This document shows positions 1,110 through 16,520 of a DNA stretch of 64,000 nucleotides, one piece after another (position 1 is the stretch's first letter; each line of letters opens with the position of its first letter). Position numbers and translations under genes: made by a program. This DNA is from Candidatus Eiseniibacteriota bacterium. GTDB taxonomy: Bacteria > Orphanbacterota > Orphanbacteria > Orphanbacterales > Orphanbacteraceae. The notes under the pieces were generated by a model. That model was not told the DNA's origin, did not search any database, and was given only the letters and a program-made list of their open reading frames with translations. The DNA lies in the NCBI GenBank assembly GCA_043809585.1, contig JBDROZ010000087.1, positions 1-64,000 on the forward strand. Direction: 5' to 3'.

Positions 1110-2553
1110 ATGGCGCTTGGTTCCGAAATCGATCTCCTCCGGCGGGTGGGAGAGGTCCTCGCCGATCCCGCTCTCGGAGACGTGTTCCCCGGCGTCTTCT
1201 TCGAGATCGCCCGGACTTACACGGTTCCGGCGGGGGGGGGGGATACCGGCCGGGGCCTCCGGCCGTGCGGGGCCCCTCCGTCTCCGCCGCGGGGAGCGGG
1301 AGCGGTTCGTCGTCCTTACCGGCGCGGACGAAGCTTCGGGGAGGGAGGCCTGGCGCCGTGCCGTCGAGGATCTCGGGGGGGAGGCCGCCGCGCCCATCGT
1401 CGTCCGGGAGGTTCCGGGCCGAGAACGGAACGGACGTTACTACCCCGACATCTCCGGCCTTCTCCTCGGCGAGAACTACTACCCGATTTCGTATCTGAAG
1501 CCGATGGAGGGCATCGCCTATGTCTCCCTCGGTCTCGGCGCCCCGAACCGCGCCCACAGGGGGGCCCTCCGGTTCTCCCCCGCCCACCCGGACCTGATGC
1601 CCGATTTCTCCACGCCCGCGGACATCCTTCGGAATTCCCAGCGGAATTTCCTCGCCCTCGACCCGGCAGATCCTTCGGCGGGGCCGCTCGAGTTCGATCT
1701 GGGCGTGGCGATGAAGGACGGCGCCCTCGCCCCGGTGGGGAGCGTCTACTCGAGGGAGAACCAGGCCCTCTATCCCGGTGTGGGGCGGGAGGGGGTCAAG
1801 GTCGTCACCTTCGCCCCCATGCTCCGGGGGGGGGGATTCCCCCTTGCGAAGATCCTGAAAGAGCTGCTCGACCGATTCCGGGAGGCTTTTCGCGAACCCC
1901 TCGCCGTCGAGTTCGCGGTGAGTCTCGGGGGGGGGAGCGCGGGGGGAAGGGAACATCGCTTCATCGTCGAGCGGGTGACGGCGCAGTGGACCGGGGAGGA
2001 AGGGGCGCCGGAGCCCCTCGACCTCGAGAGTCCCGGCGACGATCTCCTCTGTTCCTCCGGCGCGGCCCTCGGGAACGGGACCTTTCCCGGTATCCGGGAC
2101 ATCCTCTGTGTCTGCCCCGACCGGTTCGACGTCTCCAAGTCCCACGACATCGGAAGGGAGGTGGGGCGGTTCGACCGGGGGCTCCGGGAGGGGGGGCGCC
2201 CCTATGTCCTGATCGGATCCGGGCGATGGGGGACTTCCGACCGGTGGCTGGGAGTCCCCGTGACGTGGGGGGACATCTCGGGCGCGCGCATTCAAGTCGA
2301 GGTCGGTCTCGAAGACTTCAACGTCGAGTCCTCCCGGGGCACCCATTTCTTCCGGGAGCTGACCTTCCACCGCATCGGCGCCCTGCACATCGGGCCGGGA
2401 AATCCGCGGGACAGGATCGATTGGGACTATCTACAAACCGCCCCCACCGCGTCGGAGGGGGAGTTCGTCCGCCACATCGCCCTCGACGAACCGCTCCGCA
2501 TCCGCATCGACGGCCGCCGCGGCCGCGCCGCCATATGGAAACCGCCCGCCTGA
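1110..2553 (+). CDS. Degenerate PEP/pyruvate-binding (PPDK_N)-like protein; +1 frameshift in G11 run at 1232-1242
   Basis: ATG at 1110 (MALGSEIDLLRRV...) is in one frame; homology to the 5884 and 7625 proteins (YYPDISG, VSLGLG, VEFA, LIGSGRWG, GTHFF, IDG) continues in the +1 frame after the poly-G. Confidence 0.75.
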
Positions 2554-2568
2554 CCCCGCCAAAAGAAA

Positions 2569-2590
2569 CGGGGCGGCCTCTGCCGCCCCG
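2569..2590 (-). terminator. Rho-independent terminator downstream of gdhA
   Basis: cggggcggc-ctct-gccgccccg hairpin preceded by an A-rich run on + (U-tract on -). Confidence 0.65.
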
Positions 2591-2616
2591 CCGGGATTCG
2601 GAATGAGAATCGGGCG

Positions 2617-4035
<1,419 letters not shown>

Positions 4036-4037
4036 TC

Positions 4038-4052
4038 AAGATTTTGAATCTT
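4038..4052. promoter_or_regulatory. Palindromic candidate operator in the divergent gdh intergenic region
   Basis: AAGATT-ttg-AATCTT in an AT-rich patch about 60 bp upstream of the gdhA start. Confidence 0.35.
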
Positions 4053-4455
4053 AACGGAAGGCCGCGGCGAAATCATCCAAACTTTTGCTAATCCTATCGG
4101 ACAGAATCCCTTTTGGACGGGAGTCGGCGGAAGGCGCTCCCTCCTCGACTTCTTCGCATTATTTTGTTTGATGACAGAGAGTTCGGCTCTGCCATCCGGT
4201 CGATTCTCTCCCGGAGTCGCCGGCGTGACGAGGCACGAGACCGTTCGGCAAAAGGAAGCGGCCCGATCCCGTCAACCCCCCTGTTTCCAATGCATTCACT
4301 ATCCTTGCCACCACGCCCGCGGGGGGAGTAATCTCGTAGGCGGTGCGAGGCACGATCGCTCACCGGCGGGCCTGCCGGGTCCCCGGGTCGATCGCGTCTG
4401 TCTATGCCGCGCTCCGCGAACGGGGTTCACGGGGACCGGGGGAAAGGGAAACGTG

Positions 4456-5745
<1,290 letters not shown>

Positions 5746-5883
5746 ACCGCCCGACGGGGTTTCCCTGGACCGGAGGACCCGTGCGCCCGAGCAACACGCA
5801 TCGACGACAAACCACGGCCCGGAAGCACGGGGGATAAAATCCGGCCCCGGAGAGGGCGACGGGATCCCCGCGGGGAGGAGGCC

Positions 5884-7632
5884 ATGGCCGGGGAACGGAA
5901 GAAGGATCTCCCCCAGTACGGGCGCCGCTTCTTCGGCGCGGCGGAGACCTTTACCCGGATCGGCGAGGGGGCCATCGGCGGGAAGGCCGCCGGACTCCGG
6001 CTCATTCACGACCACATTCTCCCCGCCGTCGAGCCGGACGAGTTCCCCTCGATCGAAGTCGTGGTACCCACTCTTACGGTCTTGACCACCAATCTGTACG
6101 ACGCGTTCGTCGAGCGGAACGGTCTCGATCCCTCATCGCTCGCCGAACTGCCGGACGACCGGATCGCCCACGAGCTGCAGAAGGCGGACCTGCCCGCCGA
6201 GTTCGTCGGCGACCTTTGGGGAATCGTGGACCGGGTGCGGGCGCCCCTCGCGGTCCGCTCATCGAGCCTTCTCGAGGACGCGCTGCAACATCCCTTCGCC
6301 GGCGTGTACGCCACGAAGATGACCCCCAACAACCAGCCCGACGTGGAGGCCCGCTTCCGGCGGCTGGTCGAAGCGATCAAGTTCGTCTACGCCTCGACCC
6401 ATTTCCGGGCGGCCCGCAGCTACCTCCGATCGATCCGACAGCCCGCGGGGTCGGAGAAGATGGCCGTCATCGTGCAGGAGATCGTGGGGACCCGATGGAA
6501 CGACCGGTTTTATCCCCACGTCTCCGGCGTGGCCCGATCATACAACTACTACCCCACCGGGCACGGCGAGCCGAAAGACGGAGTCGTCAGTCTCGCCCTC
6601 GGCCTCGGCAAACAGATCGTGGACGGAGGTCTTTCGTGGAATTACGCGCCTCCCTATCCGCGGGCGCCGGCCCCCTTCGGAGGCGTGCGGGACCTGCTTC
6701 GAAACACACAATCGAAGTTTTGGGCGGTCCACATGGGGCGCCCTCCCATGCCCGATCCGATCCGGGAGACCGAGTACCTGGTGGAGGCGGACCTCGAGGC
6801 GGCGGAAGCGGACGGCACGCTCGGCCGGCTCGCGTCCACATACGACGCGGCGTCCGACCGCGTCCGCCCCGGCATCGGGGCGAAAGGTCCCCGGGTGCTG
6901 GACTTCGCCCCCCTTCTGGCGTCGGAGGACCCTCCCCTGAACGATCTGATCCGGCGGCTTCTCTCGGTCGCCGAGGAGAAATCCGGCGCCGCCGTGGAGA
7001 TCGAGCTCGCCCTCACCCTCCCTGGACCGGGGCGGGAGAAGGCGCGGCTCGGCGTTTTGCAGGTTCGGCCGATGATGGTGAGCGAAGGGGATGTGGACCT
7101 CGCCGGGGCGGACCTGGACCGGCCGGGCACGCTCCTTGCCTCAGAGCAGGCCCTCGGCAACGGGGTCCGGGACGATATCATGGATGTGGTGTATCTGAAG
7201 CCCGGGGCCTTCGAGGCGCGGCACACGCCGCGCATCGCCGAGGATCTCGATGCGGTGAACCGGTCGCTCCTCGACGAGAACCGTCCGTACCTCCTCATCG
7301 GTTTCGGCCGGTGGGGATCCTCGGACCCCTGGCTAGGCGTTCCCGTGGAGTGGGGACAGATCAGCGGTGTCCGGGCCATCGTGGAGGCGACGCTCCCGGA
7401 CATGACCCCCGATCTCAGTCAGGGGTCTCACTTCTTCCACAACATGATCGGGTTTCAGGTCCTCTACCTTTCGGTCGGGCACACCGGGCCGCACCGGATC
7501 GACTGGGAGTGGCTGGACCGGCGGAAGACGGTCTCCGAGACCGATTTCGTCCGGCACGTCCGCCTCGAGCGTCCCCTCCGGATCGAGGTGGACGGCCGGC
7601 ACGCGCGGGGATGGGTGAGATACGATGAATAA
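5884..7632 (+). CDS. PEP/pyruvate-binding (PPDK_N ATP-grasp) domain protein without PEP-binding barrel
   Basis: IGGKAAGL, PLAVRSSSLLED, FAGVYAT, MAVIVQ, LGLG, EIELA, LQVRP; C-terminal GFGRWGS...SQGSHFF domain. Confidence 0.9.
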   Translation: MAGERKKDLPQYGRRFFGAAETFTRIGEGAIGGKAAGLRLIHDHILPAVEPDEFPSIEVVVPTLTVLTTNLYDAFVERNGLDPSSLAELPDDRIAHELQKADLPAEFVGDLWGIVDRVRAPLAVRSSSLLEDALQHPFAGVYATKMTPNNQPDVEARFRRLVEAIKFVYASTHFRAARSYLRSIRQPAGSEKMAVIVQEIVGTRWNDRFYPHVSGVARSYNYYPTGHGEPKDGVVSLALGLGKQIVDGGLSWNYAPPYPRAPAPFGGVRDLLRNTQSKFWAVHMGRPPMPDPIRETEYLVEADLEAAEADGTLGRLASTYDAASDRVRPGIGAKGPRVLDFAPLLASEDPPLNDLIRRLLSVAEEKSGAAVEIELALTLPGPGREKARLGVLQVRPMMVSEGDVDLAGADLDRPGTLLASEQALGNGVRDDIMDVVYLKPGAFEARHTPRIAEDLDAVNRSLLDENRPYLLIGFGRWGSSDPWLGVPVEWGQISGVRAIVEATLPDMTPDLSQGSHFFHNMIGFQVLYLSVGHTGPHRIDWEWLDRRKTVSETDFVRHVRLERPLRIEVDGRHARGWVRYDE

Positions 7633-10600
7633 GCCTTCGAAATCCCACCGGCGGCTCCTGGACGACCTCCAGGAGAGGGCCAAGGAACTGAACTGCCTCT
7701 ACGAGGTGGAGAACCAGCTCAACCGGACGGACGTCCCCTTGGACGAGGTCCTCCAGGGTGTGGTGGACGCGATCCCTCCGGGATTCCAGCATCCCCGGGT
7801 TTGCCGGGCGCGAATCGTCTACGGCGGGAAGGAGTTTCGTTCCGGCGAAATCTCCACGGCCGAATGGAGGATCGAGGTTCCCCTTCGGGTTCAGGACGAA
7901 CAGGTCGGCGGAATCTGCGTCTGCTACGTCGAAGAGATGCCCGCGGAAGACGAGGGCCCTTTTCTCGCCGAGGAAAGGCGCCTGCTGATCACGCTGGCCG
8001 ACCGTCTCGGCCACTACCTCTTTTACCAGAAGCTGCGGGATCTGCAGCACGACCTCGAGGTCGCCCGGCGGTCCGACTCCTCGGGAAGGGGGGATGATTG
8101 GCGCGCGCCCATCCATCTCCTTCGAGAATCGGACCGGGGCGCCTATCTCCGGATCGCCCGGCGCATGCTGAACCATCTGACGCGGATCGGCGTCGAGGAG
8201 GCCCGGGCGATTCTTACCGGCGGGCCGGGGGGCGCCGCCGACGAGGGAATCACGGAAGAGAGCAACATGCCGACCCGCGCCTGGAAACCCGACGTGCAGG
8301 TGCTGATGAGCGACCGGCCTTTCGAGATCGCCTCGGAGCATATTGGCGGGGAGGAGATCCTCTCCCGCGTCCAGCGCTGGGTTGCGGAGGACCGGGCCGG
8401 GAATTTCATCAAGCTCCTGAACAGCCAACGAACTTCTCTACCCGCGTTGGCCGACGGGATCCGTCGGTTCCATCTCTCGTCGACCGACGGCCCTAGGCTG
8501 CCGGAGTCGACCATGAAGAGCATCCGGGTCTCCCTGACCCAGAGGCTCCTCACGGAGCAACTCGACTTCGTTCGGACGGCGAAGGAGTTCGTCGAGATCG
8601 CGGATTTCGAGGAGCTGATCAAGCGCCTCATCATGCCCCCCGAGAGCCACGGCAAACTGGGGGGCAAGGGGGCGGGACTGATCCTCGCCCAGAAGGTGCT
8701 GGAGAGGACCCAGTCGGAAGACCGGCCCATCGGGAACGTCCGGATTCCGAAGACTTGGTACATCGTCTCGGACGGCCTTCTCGACTTCGTGGGACACAAC
8801 GATCTGCAGGACGTGATCGAGCAGAAGTTCAAGGAGATCGATCAGGTCCGGGACGAATACCCGAGCATCATCAGGCTTTTCAAGAGCGCCGCGTTCACGC
8901 CCCGCGTGGTCAGCGGTCTTTCCCTCGCCCTCGACGACTTCGGCGAGACGCCGCTCATCGTGCGGAGTTCGAGTCTTCTCGAGGACCGGATCGGCACGGC
9001 CTTTTCGGGCAAGTACAAGAGCCTCTTTCTCGCGAACCAGGGGACCAAGGAGGAGCGGCTGTCCGCCCTCGTGGACGCCATCGCCGAGGTGTACGCCTCC
9101 ACGTTCGGTCCGGACCCGATCGAGTATCGCCGGGATCACGGCCTCCTCGAGTTCAACGAGGAGATGGGGATCTTGGTGCAGGAGGTGGTGGGAACGAAGG
9201 TAGGGCGCTACTACCTACCCGCCTTCGCCGGGGTGGCGTTCAGCAACAACGAATTCCGGTGGTCGCCCCGCATCAAGCGGGAGGACGGCCTGGTCCGGAT
9301 GGTCGCCGGCCTCGGTACGAGAGCGGTGGACCGTGTCTCCGACGACTATCCGGTGCTTGCCGTCCCCGGCCAGCCGAAGCTCAGGGCGAACGTGGCTGTC
9401 CACGAGATCGTCCGCTACTCGCCCGGCAAGCTCGACGTGATCAACCTGGAGACCCGTTCCTGGGAGACCGTGCGGGTAGGAGATTTCATGGCCGAGTACG
9501 GCCGGAAGTACCCGGCCCTCCCGCTCGTCTTCTCCATTCTCCGGGACGACATACTCCAGAAACCGGTGGGCCTCTTGGTCGACCCCGAAAAGGACGAGCT
9601 CGTCGTCACCTTCCAGGAGCTCTTCACCGGAACGCCTTTTCTGACCCACATGCGCAACATGATGAGTCTCCTCCAAGAGCACCTGGGAACGCCGGTGGAC
9701 GTGGAGTTCGCCCACGACGGGAAGGACTTTTACCTTCTCCAGTGCCGGCCCCAGAGCTACGGGGAGGACTCCGTCCCCGCGCCGATCCCGAAGGACCTGC
9801 CCGAGCGGGACGTTTTCTTCACCGCCGACCGGTACGTGTCGAACGGATACGTTCCGGACATCACCCACGTGGTGTACGTGGACCCGGAGAAGTACGGAGA
9901 GATCGAGAGCCGCCAAGAACTGCTCGCCGTGGGACGGGCCGTGGGGCGGCTGAACAAGCTTCTCCCGAAGCGCCAGTTCCTACTCATGGGGCCGGGCCGT
10001 TGGGGAAGCCGGGGTGATCTGAAGCTCGGCGTCGGCGTGACCTATGCCGACATCAGCAATACGGCCATGCTCATCGAGATCGCCCGCCGGAAGGGGGGCT
10101 ACGTTCCCGACGTCTCCTTCGGCACCCACTTCTTCCAAGATCTGGTGGAGGCTCGGATCCGGTACCTCCCGCTCTACCCGGACGAACCGGGGGTGGTGTT
10201 CAACGAGAGGATCCTGAAGGAGTCGCAGAACCTCCTCCCCGAGATCTTGCCCGAGTACGCTCATCTCGCCGGGACGATCCTGGTGGTGGACGTGCCCGTC
10301 GCCACGGGGGGGCGGGTGCTCCGAGTCCTCTTAAACGCCGAACTGGACGAGGCGGTGGCGCTGCTCAGCGCCCCCGAGGAGGGCCCCCGGGCCCGCCCGG
10401 AGGTTTCGGCCGGCGGCGATTCCCAGCGGAAGCCGGTCCAGTACTGGCTGTGGCGGCTCAAGATGGCCGAACGGGTCGCGATGGAGATGGACGCCGGGCG
10501 GTTCGGCGTGAAAGCCATGTACCTGTTCGGGAGCACCAAGAACGCCACGGCGGGCCCGGCGAGCGACATCGATCTTCTCGTGCATTTCACGGGGGGAGAG

Positions 10601-10816
10601 GAACAGCGGCGGGATCTTCTCTCCTGGTTCGAAGGGTGGAGCCTTTGTCTCGGGGAGGTGAACTACCTCCGGACCGGATACCGGACCGAGGGGCTCCTGG
10701 ACGTGCACATCGTCACCGACGACGACATCGAGAAGCGAACGAGCTACGCCGTCAAGATCGGCGCCGTGACCGACGCGGCCCGCGAGCTCCCTCTTCGAAA
10801 GAGCGGCCGGCCTTGA
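7625..10816 (+). CDS. Multidomain protein: N-terminal sensory-like region, PPDK_N ATP-grasp, GTHFF domain, C-terminal nucleotidyltransferase
   Basis: LQERAKELNCLY...FLAEERRL N-terminus; LGGKGAGL, VRSSSLLED, FSGKY, VEFA, LLQCRP; GPGRWGS, SFGTHFF; C-terminal MYLFGS...SDIDLLV (pol-beta/MNT motif). Confidence 0.9.
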   Translation: MNKPSKSHRRLLDDLQERAKELNCLYEVENQLNRTDVPLDEVLQGVVDAIPPGFQHPRVCRARIVYGGKEFRSGEISTAEWRIEVPLRVQDEQVGGICVCYVEEMPAEDEGPFLAEERRLLITLADRLGHYLFYQKLRDLQHDLEVARRSDSSGRGDDWRAPIHLLRESDRGAYLRIARRMLNHLTRIGVEEARAILTGGPGGAADEGITEESNMPTRAWKPDVQVLMSDRPFEIASEHIGGEEILSRVQRWVAEDRAGNFIKLLNSQRTSLPALADGIRRFHLSSTDGPRLPESTMKSIRVSLTQRLLTEQLDFVRTAKEFVEIADFEELIKRLIMPPESHGKLGGKGAGLILAQKVLERTQSEDRPIGNVRIPKTWYIVSDGLLDFVGHNDLQDVIEQKFKEIDQVRDEYPSIIRLFKSAAFTPRVVSGLSLALDDFGETPLIVRSSSLLEDRIGTAFSGKYKSLFLANQGTKEERLSALVDAIAEVYASTFGPDPIEYRRDHGLLEFNEEMGILVQEVVGTKVGRYYLPAFAGVAFSNNEFRWSPRIKREDGLVRMVAGLGTRAVDRVSDDYPVLAVPGQPKLRANVAVHEIVRYSPGKLDVINLETRSWETVRVGDFMAEYGRKYPALPLVFSILRDDILQKPVGLLVDPEKDELVVTFQELFTGTPFLTHMRNMMSLLQEHLGTPVDVEFAHDGKDFYLLQCRPQSYGEDSVPAPIPKDLPERDVFFTADRYVSNGYVPDITHVVYVDPEKYGEIESRQELLAVGRAVGRLNKLLPKRQFLLMGPGRWGSRGDLKLGVGVTYADISNTAMLIEIARRKGGYVPDVSFGTHFFQDLVEARIRYLPLYPDEPGVVFNERILKESQNLLPEILPEYAHLAGTILVVDVPVATGGRVLRVLLNAELDEAVALLSAPEEGPRARPEVSAGGDSQRKPVQYWLWRLKMAERVAMEMDAGRFGVKAMYLFGSTKNATAGPASDIDLLVHFTGGEEQRRDLLSWFEGWSLCLGEVNYLRTGYRTEGLLDVHIVTDDDIEKRTSYAVKIGAVTDAARELPLRKSGRP

Positions 10817-11649
10817 GGTGCTTCTTCACGTCCGATCTCCACGGTCGGGAGGCGCGCTACGAGGCACTCTTCGGCGCCGTCTCCTCCGAGGGCCCCGACG
10901 GGCTCTTTCTCGGCGGGGATCTTCTCCCCCGCGCCGCCGATCCCGAGGAGTTCCTCGCCGAACATCTCTTCGGCCGACTGCGGTCGCTCCGCGGCGGGGG
11001 GCGGGCGCCCCGCTGCTTCGTCATTCTCGGCAACGACGATCCTCGGATCCATGAGGAGATCCTGACGGAAGCGGCAGAGGAAGGCCTGATCGAATACGTC
11101 CACGGGCGATCGGTCCCCTTTGGCCCATGGTTCGTGACCGGGTACGCCTTCGTCCCGCCCACGCCCTTCCGCCTCAAGGATTGGGAGAAGTACGATGTCT
11201 CCCGCCAAGTCGATCCCGGCTCCGTCTCCCCCGAGGAGGGGACGCGCTCAGTGGACGTGTCGCTTCGGGAGATCCGTTACGGGACCATCGCCGCCGATCT
11301 GGAGGAACTCGCGGCGATGTCGCCGCCGGAGCGCACCCTGTTCCTCTTCCACTCGCCCCCCTACAAGACCGCCCTCGACAGGGCCGCGTTGGACGGCAGG
11401 ATGGTCGATCATGCCCCGCTCGACGTCCACGTAGGAAGCGTGGCGATCGCCCGTTTCATCGAGGAGAAACAGCCCCGGGTCACCCTTCACGGTCACGTCC
11501 ACGAAGCCCCACGGCTCAGCGGCAGGTGGCGGGAGCGCATCGGAGAGACCCACGCTTTCACCGGATGCCATGACGGCCGGGGCATCGGCCTCGTGCGGTT
11601 CGATCCGGATCGCCCCGAGGATGCCACCCGGGAAGTTCTCGGAGACTGA
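10813..11649 (+). CDS. Calcineurin-like metallophosphoesterase
   Basis: SDLHG, LGGDL, ILGNDD, FHSPP, LHGHVHE motifs; TTG start overlaps the upstream TGA (TTGA). Confidence 0.9.
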   Translation: MRCFFTSDLHGREARYEALFGAVSSEGPDGLFLGGDLLPRAADPEEFLAEHLFGRLRSLRGGGRAPRCFVILGNDDPRIHEEILTEAAEEGLIEYVHGRSVPFGPWFVTGYAFVPPTPFRLKDWEKYDVSRQVDPGSVSPEEGTRSVDVSLREIRYGTIAADLEELAAMSPPERTLFLFHSPPYKTALDRAALDGRMVDHAPLDVHVGSVAIARFIEEKQPRVTLHGHVHEAPRLSGRWRERIGETHAFTGCHDGRGIGLVRFDPDRPEDATREVLGD

Positions 11650-11930: not shown

Positions 11931-13427
11931 ATGACGGACCCGCGAAACATGGAACCCGGGGAGAGGGGGAGGGACGCCGCGCTGCTCCTCTCGCTGACGG
12001 CGGCCGCCCTCCTCCTCCGCTTCTTCCGGATCGGCGCCGAGTCGCTTTGGCTCGACGAGGCGTACTCGTGGCACCTCTCGTCGGCCGACGCCCTCTCGAC
12101 CCTGACCGGAAGCGTCGGCAACCGGCACACGCCCCCCCTCTATTATTTTCTCCTCCACTTCTGGATGTACTTCGGATCGTCCGAGACGGTCCTCCGTTCC
12201 CTCTCCGCGCTCTTCGGCGCCCTTTCGGTTCCCCTCGCGTACGGGCTCGGGAGGGATCTCCTCGGGCGGGCCCCGGCCCGGATCGGGGCCGCCCTCTTCG
12301 CCTTCGCCCCCTTCCTCGTCTACTACGGGCAGGAGGCCCGGGGGTACACCCTTCTCGTGTTCCTCGTGCTCCTCCTCCATCGCCTTCTTCTTCGGTACGT
12401 CTCGGAGGGGCGGGCCCGGGACGGCGCTCTCTTCGCTCTGGTCGCCGTGATCTCCCTCTACACCCACTACTACGCCGGTTTCGTTCTCGTCGCGGCAAAC
12501 GTCTTCGCCATCGTCGAGCTCCGCCGCCGCCGGGGTCTACTCGCCCGGTGGCTCGCGGTGCAGGCGCTGATCGCCGGCGCCTACGCCCCCTGGATCGTCA
12601 ATCTGCTCACCGCCGGCTTCGGAGGAGGCCAGATCTTCCGCCGGTTTCTCTTCAGCCAGGTCCCGTACTCTTTCCTTCGCTTCACTCTGGGCTACGGGCT
12701 GCTCCCCCTTTCGCCGGAGGCGAAGGCGGACATGACCGGCTTCGTGGCGCGGAATCTCCCCTTGCTCGCCGCGGCCGCTCTCTCTTTCGGGGCCCTCCTC
12801 GCCGCCGGGGTGCGGAGCGTGTCGGGGCGGCCGGGACGGTTCCTCCTCGTCCATCTGCTCGTCCCCGTCGTCCTCGCCCTGGCCGTCTCGCTCCGGTCGA
12901 ACCTGATCAGCGAGCGCTACCTGATCGTCACCTATCCCTGCTTCGCGCTCTTTCTCGCCGCCGGCTTCGGCGCCGCCCGGAGCGCGGCCACGCGAACCGC
13001 CGCGGCGGCGGCGATCGCGCTCACTCTTTTCGGGCTCGGCGCCCACTACTTCAATCCCCGGGCGGGCAAGGCGGACTGGCGGGAGGCGGCGGCCCTCGTC
13101 GGCCGCGAGGGGGAAGCGGGAGACGTGGTCCTTCTCGCCCCCTCGTTTATCGACCTCCCTTTTTGCTATTATTTCGACCGGAGGGAAGGCCCGCCGATGG
13201 AGGTGCGCGGCCTCCAGTCGGCGGAGGGATTCGACGAGAATCGCTTCGAGAGAGAGTGGGAGACGATCGGCCGGGCGAATCGCTGGTGGCTCGTCGCCTC
13301 CCACACGGAGCGCACTGATTTCTATCGCCGCTTGATGGGCGCGCGGGGGCGCGAAATCGATTGCGTCTTCCTGCCCGAGGAGAACGGGATTACCATCTCC
13401 CTTTTCGAGAGAGGGAACGGACGATGA
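11931..13427 (+). CDS. GT-C fold (GT39/PMT-like) membrane glycosyltransferase
   Basis: SLWLDEAYS, HTPPLYY, YGQEARGY, ERYL, DWREAA motifs; many TM helices. Confidence 0.85.
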   Translation: MTDPRNMEPGERGRDAALLLSLTAAALLLRFFRIGAESLWLDEAYSWHLSSADALSTLTGSVGNRHTPPLYYFLLHFWMYFGSSETVLRSLSALFGALSVPLAYGLGRDLLGRAPARIGAALFAFAPFLVYYGQEARGYTLLVFLVLLLHRLLLRYVSEGRARDGALFALVAVISLYTHYYAGFVLVAANVFAIVELRRRRGLLARWLAVQALIAGAYAPWIVNLLTAGFGGGQIFRRFLFSQVPYSFLRFTLGYGLLPLSPEAKADMTGFVARNLPLLAAAALSFGALLAAGVRSVSGRPGRFLLVHLLVPVVLALAVSLRSNLISERYLIVTYPCFALFLAAGFGAARSAATRTAAAAAIALTLFGLGAHYFNPRAGKADWREAAALVGREGEAGDVVLLAPSFIDLPFCYYFDRREGPPMEVRGLQSAEGFDENRFEREWETIGRANRWWLVASHTERTDFYRRLMGARGREIDCVFLPEENGITISLFERGNGR

Positions 13428-14384: not shown

Positions 14385-14834
14385 TCATCGGCTGGGGGCG
14401 TAGAACCCGGCGAGGGTCCAGACCGACCCCTCCCTCCGGAGACGGGCGGCGTTCCCCGTGCCGAAAGTCTGGACGGGGCGCCGACGGAGGAGCCGGGCGA
14501 GGAGGTACTCGAGATGGGGGATGTGGCCGACCACGGCGGTGTCCACATCGGTGGAGGCGAGGTCGCCGGCGATGTCCGACACGTCGTCGTGGGGCTCGAG
14601 GCCGGTCCGCCGGAGGGGAGGGACACCGCTGGCGATCGTGCGGCTCAAGACGCCGGCCGTCTCGAAGGCGCGCTTCTTTCCACTGTGGAAGACCAGCTCC
14701 ACGCGCACGCCGTCCGCCGCCAGGCGATCCGCCACGGCGCCCGCCTCTCTTCGTCCCCGCTCCGAGAGGCCCCGCTCGGGGTCCGCTTCGGAGGGGAGGG
14801 CGTGGCCGTGACGCATGAGTACGACGGTTGTCAT
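14385..14834 (-). CDS. sixA: Phosphohistidine phosphatase SixA
   Basis: LMRHG, R.LS..G, HSGKKRA.ETA, VVGHIPHL. Confidence 0.88.
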   Translation of the reverse strand: MTTVVLMRHGHALPSEADPERGLSERGRREAGAVADRLAADGVRVELVFHSGKKRAFETAGVLSRTIASGVPPLRRTGLEPHDDVSDIAGDLASTDVDTAVVGHIPHLEYLLARLLRRRPVQTFGTGNAARLRREGSVWTLAGFYAPSR

Positions 14835-14949: not shown

Positions 14950-15231
14950 ATGGGACGGGTCTTTCGCGCACTCCTCTTGGTCGGGCCGGGCCTCGCGGCG
15001 GCGTACTACTTCTTCGTCTATCTCGTCGTCTGGTCCTTCGTCGTCGTGTACGCCGCCCTCGGCTCTCTCTTCATGCCCTTCCTCGCAGGCACCCTCTTCT
15101 TCCTGATGAACCGGAGGGAGTGGATGGGCGGCCTCCGCAACGGCCGGCTCGCGAACGCGGGGCTCGCGGTCTCCCTCCTTCTCTTCCTCTGTCTGGCGGT
15201 GGCCGGCCTCCTGGAGAGGTTCGGATCGTGA
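14950..15231 (+). pseudogene. Short membrane ORF, probable internally deleted Nramp-like transporter remnant
   Basis: Segments GPGL, F.YL..WSF and YA..G..FMPFLA.TL...MN.R.W.G..RNG...N recall the start, TM3 and C-terminus of Nramp-like transporters, compressed into 93 aa. Confidence 0.5.
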
Positions 15232-16520
15232 CGCCGCCCCGTCTCCTGGCGGACGACATGCTCGGCCGCCTCGCCCGTTGGCTCCGGGGGGCGGGCCTCG
15301 ACACGGCCTACGCCGGCGACGGCGCCGCCACAGACGATGACGACATTCTCCGGCGGGCGAGACGGGAGAAGCGGATCGTCGTCACCCGGGACCAACGCTT
15401 TCCCGGCGGCCCGGAGGAGGTGATCGTCGTCGAGTCTCGGGGCTTGGGTGATCAGCTCGTGGAGGTGCTCCGCCGGTTCCCCGAGTTCGACCCCCTCGCC
15501 CGTCCCTTCAGCCGGTGCATGGAGTGCAACGGAGAGGTCCGGCCGGAAGATGATCCGCCCGGCCGGCCGGCGGGGACAAAGGGGCCCTTCACGCGCTGCG
15601 ACGACTGCGGGCGGCTCTTCTGGGAGGGGAGCCACGCCCCGCGGATCCGGGAGAAGCTCGGCCGCGCGAAGCAGGGGGTGGAGCGGGTGGTCGCCGACGA
15701 AAGGGCGGGCGTTCCCCGGCCCATCGAGCGGGCGGAGTTCGACCGCTTCCTGGAGGACGCCCTTCCCCTCCTCGGCTTCTCGTGGCGGGGCTACCGGCGG
15801 GTCCGGTTCGGCCTCCGCACGCGGATCCGGCGGCGCATGGCGGATCTCGGAATCCGGACCTTGGACGTCTACGGGGACCGAGTCCGCCGGGACCGGGAGG
15901 AACGCCGCGCCCTCCGCCGCCTGCTCCGGGTCACCATCTCGCGGTTCTTCCGGGACCGGGCGCTCTGGCTTCGCTTCCCCGCGGTCCTCTTCCCCGATCT
16001 CGTCCTCCTCGCGGGGGACGGCCCCGCGCGGATCTGGTCCCTCGGATGCGCCTCGGGGGAGGAGCCCTTCACGCTCCGCATGGTGTGGGACCGGGAGGGC
16101 CCGGCCGGCGGAGCCCTCGAGATCATGGGGGGCGACATCTCCGAGGATTGCCTCGCCCGGGCGAGGGAAGGGCTCTACCCCGAGAGCGCCCTCCACAACA
16201 CGCCCCCCGATTACCGGGAGCGCTATTTCCGGCCCGAAGGGGGGCTCTTCCGCCTCGACCGGCATGTGACCGGGTCGGTCCGGTTCGAGCGGTTCGACTG
16301 GGCGGATGATGATTGGCCCGGTCCCTTTCACGGCATCTTCGCGAGAAATGGTATGTTCACTTATCTCGACGGGCCGGGCCGGCGGCGGGCGTCGGGGAAG
16401 ATCGCGGCCTCTCTCCTCCCGGGCGGCTTTCTCTGGATCGGGGGGAACGAACGCCTCCCGGAAGAGACGGGATGGGAGAGGACGGGCGCGGGACTCTTTC
16501 GGAAAAATGTTGACGGTTAA
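15228..16520 (+). CDS. Mut7-C (PIN-fold RNase/Zn-ribbon) domain fused to a CheR-type SAM methyltransferase
   Basis: LLADDMLGRLARWLR..G.D, VTRD, RCMECNG, RCDDCGRLFWEGSH; then VTISRFFRD, IWSLGCASGEEPFT, GDIS, ARN.F.Y, L.PGGFL.IG..E; GTG start overlaps the upstream TGA. Confidence 0.85.
   Translation: MTPPRLLADDMLGRLARWLRGAGLDTAYAGDGAATDDDDILRRARREKRIVVTRDQRFPGGPEEVIVVESRGLGDQLVEVLRRFPEFDPLARPFSRCMECNGEVRPEDDPPGRPAGTKGPFTRCDDCGRLFWEGSHAPRIREKLGRAKQGVERVVADERAGVPRPIERAEFDRFLEDALPLLGFSWRGYRRVRFGLRTRIRRRMADLGIRTLDVYGDRVRRDREERRALRRLLRVTISRFFRDRALWLRFPAVLFPDLVLLAGDGPARIWSLGCASGEEPFTLRMVWDREGPAGGALEIMGGDISEDCLARAREGLYPESALHNTPPDYRERYFRPEGGLFRLDRHVTGSVRFERFDWADDDWPGPFHGIFARNGMFTYLDGPGRRRASGKIAASLLPGGFLWIGGNERLPEETGWERTGAGLFRKNVDG

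Follow-up and report, generated by a model that had tools for sequence, protein, structure and literature searches.

A six-gene block around two glutamate dehydrogenase genes

The window analysed here, a 64,000-nucleotide stretch (positions 1 to 64,000) of contig JBDROZ010000087.1 from a Candidatus Eiseniibacteriota bacterium, carries near its start two glutamate dehydrogenase (GDH) genes set among genes for three related proteins, which we call P1, P2 and P3, and a gene for a calcineurin-like phosphoesterase. A preliminary description, made from the letters of this DNA alone, had proposed that these six genes form a covalent-regulation system acting on GDH, and had noted that the two GDHs are divergent and of different subfamilies. 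This last observation held. The gdhA gene (2617..3978, minus strand) encodes a family I NADP-type enzyme that passes the NCBIfam model PRK09414 for NADP-GDH (758.6 bits against a cut-off of 536) and is above cut-off for NF006929. The gdhB gene (4456..5745, plus strand), transcribed divergently from gdhA, encodes a family II enzyme from a clade that is linked to the cassette and has a CWDQ-type insert; its nearest NCBIfam model is GdhA_Arch (461 against a cut-off of 750), and it falls under every named cut-off. The two proteins are 33% identical, and both retain the three catalytic or substrate Lys residues and the Asp of PA[GP]D. A sigma-70 or sigma-54 consensus site was sought in the region between the two genes, and none was found.

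P2 and P3 resemble dikinases that lack an acceptor domain

P2 (5884..7632, plus strand) is a protein of 582 amino acids (aa) in which an ATP-grasp domain (residues 30-400) is followed directly by a C-terminal domain with an invariant His. P3 (7625..10816, plus strand), whose open reading frame (ORF) overlaps that of P2 by 8 nt, has 1063 aa, with a GAF-like N-terminus and an uncharacterised linker ahead of its ATP-grasp domain (344-725), its own His domain and a C-terminal nucleotidyltransferase. The Pfam domain PPDK_N is present above cut-off in both (E 1e-29 in P2, E 1e-55 in P3). For rifampin phosphotransferase (RPH), PMC4844700 gives K22, R117 and T136 as essential ATP-site residues; these map to K34, R125 and T144 of P2, where K34 and R125 are invariant in the family and T144 nearly so, and to K348, R447 and S466 of P3. 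The combination that marks the dikinase superfamily, PPDK_N with the catalytic Lys/Arg/Thr and QxR, is thus found in P2 and P3 and not in P1.

Since the His domain of P2 (about residues 397-582) begins where PPDK_N ends, at residue 400, P2 has no acceptor domain. No central substrate-binding domain of the RPH/PigC type was found between ATP-grasp and His domain, the family scoring far below cut-off, and a Pfam scan of P2 and P3 showed no PEP-utilizers_C barrel in either protein, nor is there room for it. With moderate confidence, then, residues and predicted fold mark P2 and P3 as ATP-grasp and His-swivel dikinases without an acceptor domain, and because that domain is missing the family would stand outside both the PPDK/phosphoenolpyruvate (PEP) synthase enzymes and the RPH-type kinases.

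Databases nevertheless label such proteins as ordinary PEP synthase or PPDK, in which case their position near gdh would be one of metabolic convenience. Source names such as 'pyruvate, water dikinase' and weak NCBIfam PEP synthase matches speak for that label. Those matches, however, give P2 and P3 only 15-52 bits against cut-offs of 598-1063, the pyruvate-binding barrel is absent, as the preliminary description had recognised, and the source genome has three separate canonical PEP-utilizers matches elsewhere. We regard this reading as extremely improbable.

The same description had called the N-terminus of P3 sensor-like. It is GAF-like at the level of a lead (Atlas scores of 0.86-0.89), which fits that view, but no Pfam match supports it. 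Homologues of this N-terminus also occur about 3 kb from very large PEP-utilizers proteins (frames of 1400-1550 aa) in three relatives (G004:C34, G007:C121 and G008:C457). The closest named relatives of P3 come from Candidatus Eisenbacteria.

The C-terminal domain has a predicted His-swivel fold

The motifs G.GRWG and G[ST]HFF had been singled out at the outset as the mark of a C-terminal domain with an invariant His, and both are indeed kept in all three paralogues. Among aligned homologues, the His (H516 in P2, codon 7429-7431; H835 in P3, codon 10127-10129; both plus strand) occurs in 105 of 105 and in 133 of 135. Although P2 residues 397-582 (7072..7629, plus strand) match no Pfam family, the domain belongs to a large one, with 1590 clusters at 50% identity (E<=0.001).

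A single-sequence AF2 model of P2 reached a pLDDT of 34, and a model of the His domain built with a 135-row alignment reached a pLDDT of 95 and a pTM of 0.91. The latter has a swivel-like fold in which H516 opens a predicted helix. When it was compared with 48,161 representative chains using VIA-align, seven of the top nine matches were PEP-utiliser His-swivel domains, and in a second pass all of the top 11 of 1000 were. Overall, these matches had Z-scores of 5.4-6.9 and a root-mean-square deviation (rmsd) of 2.8-4.3 Å over 101-125 aligned residues. First came the His domain of RPH (Z 6.8, with an rmsd of 3.3 Å over 112 aligned residues). Next were the PEP-utiliser-like tail of pyruvate kinase from Bacillus (Z 6.7) and the phosphoryl-carrier domain of PPDK (Z 6.5 and 6.3), while the His domains of Enzyme I scored 5.4-5.7. 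By eye, the motif order, which runs from a strand, a helix and a second strand to G-[ST]-H at the start of a helix and then to another strand and a closing DG..G hairpin, resembles the GGxTSH...IDG..G pattern of the PEP-utilizers alignment. The structural comparison with the PEP-utiliser swivel that the preliminary description had suggested as a check thus leaned in its favour, and a phosphohistidine swivel-type fold is predicted for the GTHFF domain with moderate confidence. Malate dehydrogenase matches to this domain in a phmmer search of the PDB were weak and were discarded as chance.

Family members lie beside GDH genes far more often than expected

We looked for the family in a broad sample of 301 genomes (family call at E<=1e-15, at most three candidates scored per genome), with GDH detected as a PF02812 match and linkage defined as lying within 10 kb. 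The family was found in 74 genomes; one or two of these calls are fragments or ATP-grasp-only proteins and were retained in the counts. A member is linked to GDH in 43 of the 74, where a crude uniform model expects about 1.8, and outside the window's own family in 36 of 67 (about 1.4 expected). The predicted enrichment of gdh beside GTHFF-type PPDK_N proteins is therefore real by this measure. Of the 74 family-positive genomes 71 have a GDH, as do 151 of the 227 negative ones, which gives an odds ratio of about 12; kin are not independent in this figure. Among the best 80 of 702 GTDB loci, a set biased to P2-like proteins, GDH lies within the stored flank in 56, and in 35 of the 46 full-length loci. 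In the Bacteroidales-type order sampled, a form with receiver domains occurs in 58 of 61 genomes and within 10 kb of GDH in 27 of those 58.

For 137 family ORFs in the fetched loci we scored which GDH is nearest. For the nucleotidyltransferase-bearing P3 type it is the insert-clade GdhB in 20 of 21 cases, and for the short P2 type the same clade in 22 of 27. In 9 of 16 cases the GDH nearest the P3 type without a nucleotidyltransferase is from a different family II clade, and the receiver type lies nearest a family I GDH in 36 of the 47 loci with a GDH, a further 23 loci having none. Each subtype thus goes with a GDH subfamily of its own, and the majority of relatives adjoin one GDH only, which does not support the proposal that the module toggles between an assimilatory and a catabolic GDH. 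Up to four family paralogues occur per genome. In addition, P2 is matched over 79-99% of its length by 19 proteins of 1523-1655 aa. Ten of these match 98-100% of P3 as well and are thus natural fusions of P2 and P3.

Most of the long class-A relatives carry receiver domains (PF00072), whereas the window's own proteins carry none. By consensus these relatives have two receiver-like domains, the first without the acceptor Asp (FDLVITM) and the second keeping VED/ISD/QSS/K. At two Parabacteroides loci (L096 9664-13369 and L115 12523-16216), the space from gdhA to the family gene holds, directly downstream of gdhA, a phosphotransferase-like and a nucleotidyltransferase-like gene, both recognised by eye. 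These two are alternative candidates for the 'trans-acting genes' reported in 1996.

As a further check, GdhB (residues 6-429) was co-folded with the P3 core (residues 339-912). The pair scored 0.56 and the best of three controls 0.00. Agreement between runs covered at least 65% of contacts, the partner's pLDDT is at least 76, and no interface was given. Of the solved complexes, 116 of 157 attained the mark used, against 2 of 215 mismatches. Because gene linkage had made the pairing likely beforehand, the odds rise only modestly from this result, and the co-folding check proposed at the outset lends weak support to binding of GdhB by the P3 core.

A possible phosphohistidine relay onto GDH

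Taking residues, fold and linkage together, we think it probable that the family is a regulator that docks on GDH, whether by covalent or non-covalent means. The more specific reading that we favour, and to which we give a probability of about 40%, is that P2 and P3 dock on GDH and pass the phosphate of ATP to it through a phosphohistidine, with a nucleotidylation layer on top. In a first step, suggested by the conserved residues and the fold, ATP would be cleaved and its beta-phosphate placed on the invariant His (H516 or H835), with release of AMP and Pi. The core would then dock on its partner GDH subfamily, a step for which the linkage is observed and the binding weakly predicted. Finally, the His would swing over and phosphorylate a GDH residue, changing GDH activity; in GdhB, the clade-specific invariant H64, H116 and H155 are candidate acceptors at the level of a lead. 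GDH would in this way stand in for the third, acceptor-binding domain that the family lacks and that PPDK, RPH and glucan water dikinase (GWD) possess. P2 and P3 may work jointly, as their natural fusions suggest, and nitrogen or carbon status may be read by the N-terminal modules, which vary across the family, being GAF-like here and receiver domains in most relatives.

Several observations weigh against phosphorylation of GDH. The characterised relatives considered here (RPH in PMC4844700, HpeHI and GWD) phosphorylate small molecules or glucan and not proteins. No member lies within 10 kb of GDH in 31 of the 74 family-positive genomes, several being far away on complete chromosomes, and in 3 of the 74 no GDH was found. 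The Z-scores of the His domain are below the tool's bar of 8, in a range that may reflect a common arrangement; a Foldseek search of the domain against the PDB gave no match at E<=0.001, and hhalign of its profile against 29 PEP-utilizers domains gave a probability below 1%, so the equivalence of the His rests on fold and motif order. The co-fold pass is weak, because only 18 of the 157 solved complexes passed at a score of 0.60 or less, as did both of the mismatches that passed (2/215). Lastly, further residues of the His domain are invariant (R476, G478, E501 and S512) and could form a small-molecule pocket of their own.

That pocket bears on a different reading, in which the acceptor of the phosphohistidine's phosphate is a small molecule (2-oxoglutarate, glutamate, glutamine, ammonia or the coenzyme), held in the enlarged His domain or on bound GDH, for ATP-driven ammonium assimilation or to make a signal metabolite. 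The characterised relatives point the same way, and HpeHI indicates that an acceptor module can be a separate polypeptide. Also in keeping with it are three of the 20 GDH-unlinked loci fetched: one in an amtB-glnK-GSIII-gltB cluster (L168), one near a glutaminase gene (L177) and one beside a 2-oxoacid dehydrogenase gene (L173). Cj1418 is a glutamine kinase of the dikinase superfamily. Nevertheless, P2 lacks an acceptor domain, and the variable sensors, the ATP-dead paralogues and the several paralogues per genome look regulatory; moreover, one reaction would hardly explain a pairing with both anabolic-type and catabolic-type GDH subfamilies. We judge a small-molecule product unlikely.

The remaining unlinked loci showed no shared theme among 37 neighbours scanned, a hand-picked subset. 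In L168 (2246-14999), the family member sits in a cluster with GAF-ANTAR, NAD synthetase, amtB, glnK, GSIII and gltB genes and no GDH gene. The differing N-terminal module of this member has no Pfam match, and presumably resembles a KaiC/RecA-type start.

P1 is an ATP-dead paralogue beside gdhA

P1 (1110..2553, plus strand) is 35% identical to P2 over 408 aa (E 4e-68), so the three proteins are homologous, as had been claimed; that all three are ATP-grasp proteins, and hence three 'writers', did not stand for P1. No PPDK_N match was found in it at E<=0.05, and none of the four P1 orthologues scores on PPDK_N. P1 and its three intact orthologues (4/4) lack the Lys of GGK, RSSxxED, the Thr and QxR, and keep GRWG and SRGTHFF (His codon 2344-2346). 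By the family's residues P1 cannot bind ATP, and its sequence marks it as a conserved pseudo-enzyme with an intact His domain. In three of the four genomes P1 and gdhA are convergent, and in the fourth P1 lies upstream of gdhB.

P1 is also frameshifted. The start at 1110, which has a good ribosome-binding site, lies in one frame and the body in another, the switch lying at a G11 homopolymer (1232..1242, plus strand), and the product would have about 480 aa if read through. The N-terminal 40 aa in the other frame and the body both align with intact orthologues of about 490-500 aa from three same-family relatives (L033, L047 and L048), and for this reason we read the break, on the sequence, as an assembly error or a recent lesion. 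No public contig among those listed spans the run, with contigs stopping at 1234 and restarting at 1312; this assembly has 31 G/C runs of at least 11. One 226-nt contig from an RNA run matches inside P1 exactly, which is too little for a claim of expression.

Under the relay reading, P1 would be an ATP-dead His carrier or adaptor for gdhA. Its retention next to GDH in all four cases also suits a non-covalent switch, in which each protein phosphorylates its own His, or responds to ATP/AMP together with a GAF or receiver signal, and regulates GDH by binding alone, leaving it unmodified, in the manner of EIIA-Ntr or of the APRT homologue on Thermus GDH. The weak co-fold fits such a switch equally well. 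So do pseudo-GDHs that lack the catalytic Lys and lie beside family members, seen in 2 of 93 aligned GDH rows (K>Q in L001, K>E in L053). The precedent is the GdhA/GdhB/APRTh complex of Thermus thermophilus, where, according to PMC12301742, GDH is activated by a catalytically inactive APRT homologue and is controlled by a bound, partly inactive enzyme homologue and by pseudo-GDH subunits. The Thermus partner has an unrelated fold, however, and shows no phosphohistidine chemistry. The active family members, by contrast, strictly retain the ATP-chemistry residues and the His, which suggests turnover to an acceptor over sensing alone, and we hold regulation by binding alone to be somewhat unlikely.

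A nucleotidyltransferase and phosphoesterase pair

The nucleotidyltransferase reported earlier at the C-terminus of P3 (domain at 10502..10813, plus strand) was confirmed as a minimal Pol-beta-type domain. Residues 960-1002 match NTP_transf_2 (PF01909) with 30.6 bits against a cut-off of 21, and the GS...SDID motif and a later Asp, which together give the hG[GS]...D-h-D and third Asp of Pol-beta nucleotidyltransferases, are conserved in the 21 relatives printed. The domain is 55-79% identical in 15 of 16 other genomes and 43% identical in one. As for a GlnD/GlnE-type modifier, no NCBIfam or Pfam match was found at E<=0.05, and there is no fused HD or second nucleotidyltransferase domain.

The phosphoesterase (10813..11649, plus strand) belongs to a cassette-specific subfamily of calcineurin-like metallophosphoesterases, with 41.1 bits for PF00149 against a cut-off of 21.5. 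Its metal-binding motifs (DLH, GGD, GNDD and HGHxHE) are conserved in 16 relatives, GNDD replacing GNH[ED]. The close subfamily (E<1e-60) occurs in 14 of the 301 genomes, with only weaker matches in seven more, and 13 of these 14 are among the 17 genomes with the nucleotidyltransferase. This supports the supposed pairing of writer and eraser, and it suggests that the eraser tracks the nucleotidyltransferase and not the His enzyme. The TTG start at 10813, backed by a relative with the same first residue, overlaps the TGA of P3, so the translational coupling described earlier fits this locus; it does not extend to a general rule, because 7 of the 11 adjacent pairs are convergent.

By analogy with GlnD/GlnE, the two proteins could form a second, optional write/erase layer on the GDH complex. 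Conservation of the domain and its co-occurrence with the phosphoesterase would also suit an arrangement in which the output is a modification of GDH by the nucleotidyltransferase, or a nucleotide signal made by it and removed by the phosphoesterase, or, given the receiver domains of most long class-A relatives, in which the phosphohistidine feeds a receiver Asp, with GDH tied to the system by co-regulation alone. Yet the nucleotidyltransferase is present in only 17 of the 74 family-positive genomes while linkage to GDH is family-wide, and a receiver is what the window's proteins lack. We think this alternative, with its nucleotidyl or relay output, quite improbable.

Comparison with known systems

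With RPH and the small-molecule dikinases PigC/RedH and HpeHI, P2 and P3 share the N-terminal ATP-grasp with equivalents of K22/R117/T136, and the C-terminal His domain best matches the RPH swivel (residues 755-867, Z 6.8-6.9). In contrast, they lack the central substrate-binding domain, their His domain exceeds the known one by about 70 residues and carries an invariant GRWG motif of its own, and the family has sensor domains, pseudo-enzymes and gdh linkage. PEP synthase and PPDK likewise share PPDK_N, and the PPDK phosphoryl-carrier domain matches the His domain (Z 6.1-6.7), but in P2 and P3 the PEP/pyruvate barrel is missing, scores are far below cut-off, and the His domain is terminal. GWD is also a dikinase with ATP-grasp and His domains and acts on a macromolecule; unlike P2 and P3, it has the reverse domain order as well as carbohydrate-binding and central domains, and is plant or algal. 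HpeHI, a split dikinase, and GWD, a macromolecule-directed one, thus give separate precedents for both ingredients of the relay onto GDH.

The nitrogen phosphotransferase system (PTS; EI-Ntr/NPr/EIIA-Ntr), as that pathway is generally understood, resembles the proposed system in coupling a GAF sensor to a phosphohistidine relay on nitrogen status, and the EI-Ntr His domain is among the structural matches; the PTS is driven by PEP, however, and the proposed relay by ATP. The GlnD/GlnE cascades, as commonly described, share a nucleotidyltransferase with an eraser. Here the nucleotidyltransferase is minimal, the candidate eraser is calcineurin-like and stands in trans in place of a fused HD domain, and the apparent target is GDH and not glutamine synthetase (GS) or PII. 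A literature search found the family nowhere described, though subscription papers and supplements may hold a description, and the accessible parts of PMC3543383 and PMC5552732 do not mention it.

Genomic setting

Between the convergent P1 and gdhA lies a terminator-like hairpin of 11 bp with a T-tail (2567..2592, minus strand), which is a consensus match only; the consensus scan that includes it found 6 such sites against 7.1 in shuffles. The six-gene block is flanked by genes for a cyclophilin (309-977) and a PMT_2 glycosyltransferase (11931-13427). These two genes are directly adjacent in the relative G003 (L043), which suggests that the block was inserted here as one unit. Farther on, a SixA-like His phosphatase gene (14385-14831, minus strand; RHG motif, PF00300) lies 2.7 kb downstream. 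It was considered as a component of the system and rejected, as it occurs at only 2 of 119 loci, both in the window's own family. At 15120-16520 (plus strand), a Mut7-C RNase domain is fused to a CheR methyltransferase, an arrangement conserved in the relative G004.

The source genome (G000) has plentiful dispersed repeats of about 140-195 bp at many contig ends and between genes. Another of its contigs, C46, has these repeats too and begins with a copy of the window's cyclophilin/YceI pair that is 84% identical, a value that rules it out as an overlap with the window's start. C46 (L001, 1741-5612) also carries a fourth family member (778 aa, without a nucleotidyltransferase) after a third GDH, in which the catalytic Lys is Gln. 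Because the cyclophilin gene adjoins such a pair of GDH and family member in relatives, C46 may lie just to the left of the window, or it may derive from a co-binned relative.

Implications

GDH is the main junction between the metabolism of carbon and that of nitrogen, and to our knowledge the dedicated covalent regulators known in bacteria target GS and PII. The family studied here is present in a quarter of the sampled genomes (74/301) and adjoins GDH genes across a wide variety of bacteria, yet it is mislabelled as PEP synthase. If P2 and P3 do phosphorylate GDH, they would represent an undescribed switch on this central enzyme. More tentatively still, the family may form a kind of protein kinase that has so far gone unrecognised, one that works as a dikinase, yields AMP and passes the beta-phosphate of ATP through a swivelling His onto GDH. 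It would be gated by interchangeable sensors and, in this organism, by a cycle of nucleotidylation and an ATP-dead His carrier as well. In Bacteroides fragilis, GDH is reported to be reversibly inactivated in vivo on ammonium shock. As the family is nearly universal in the Bacteroidales-type order sampled, it could on the same tentative footing be the missing post-translational controller of ammonium assimilation in gut Bacteroides, and cultured Bacteroidales, which have the family as a single gene, allow the question to be tested directly.

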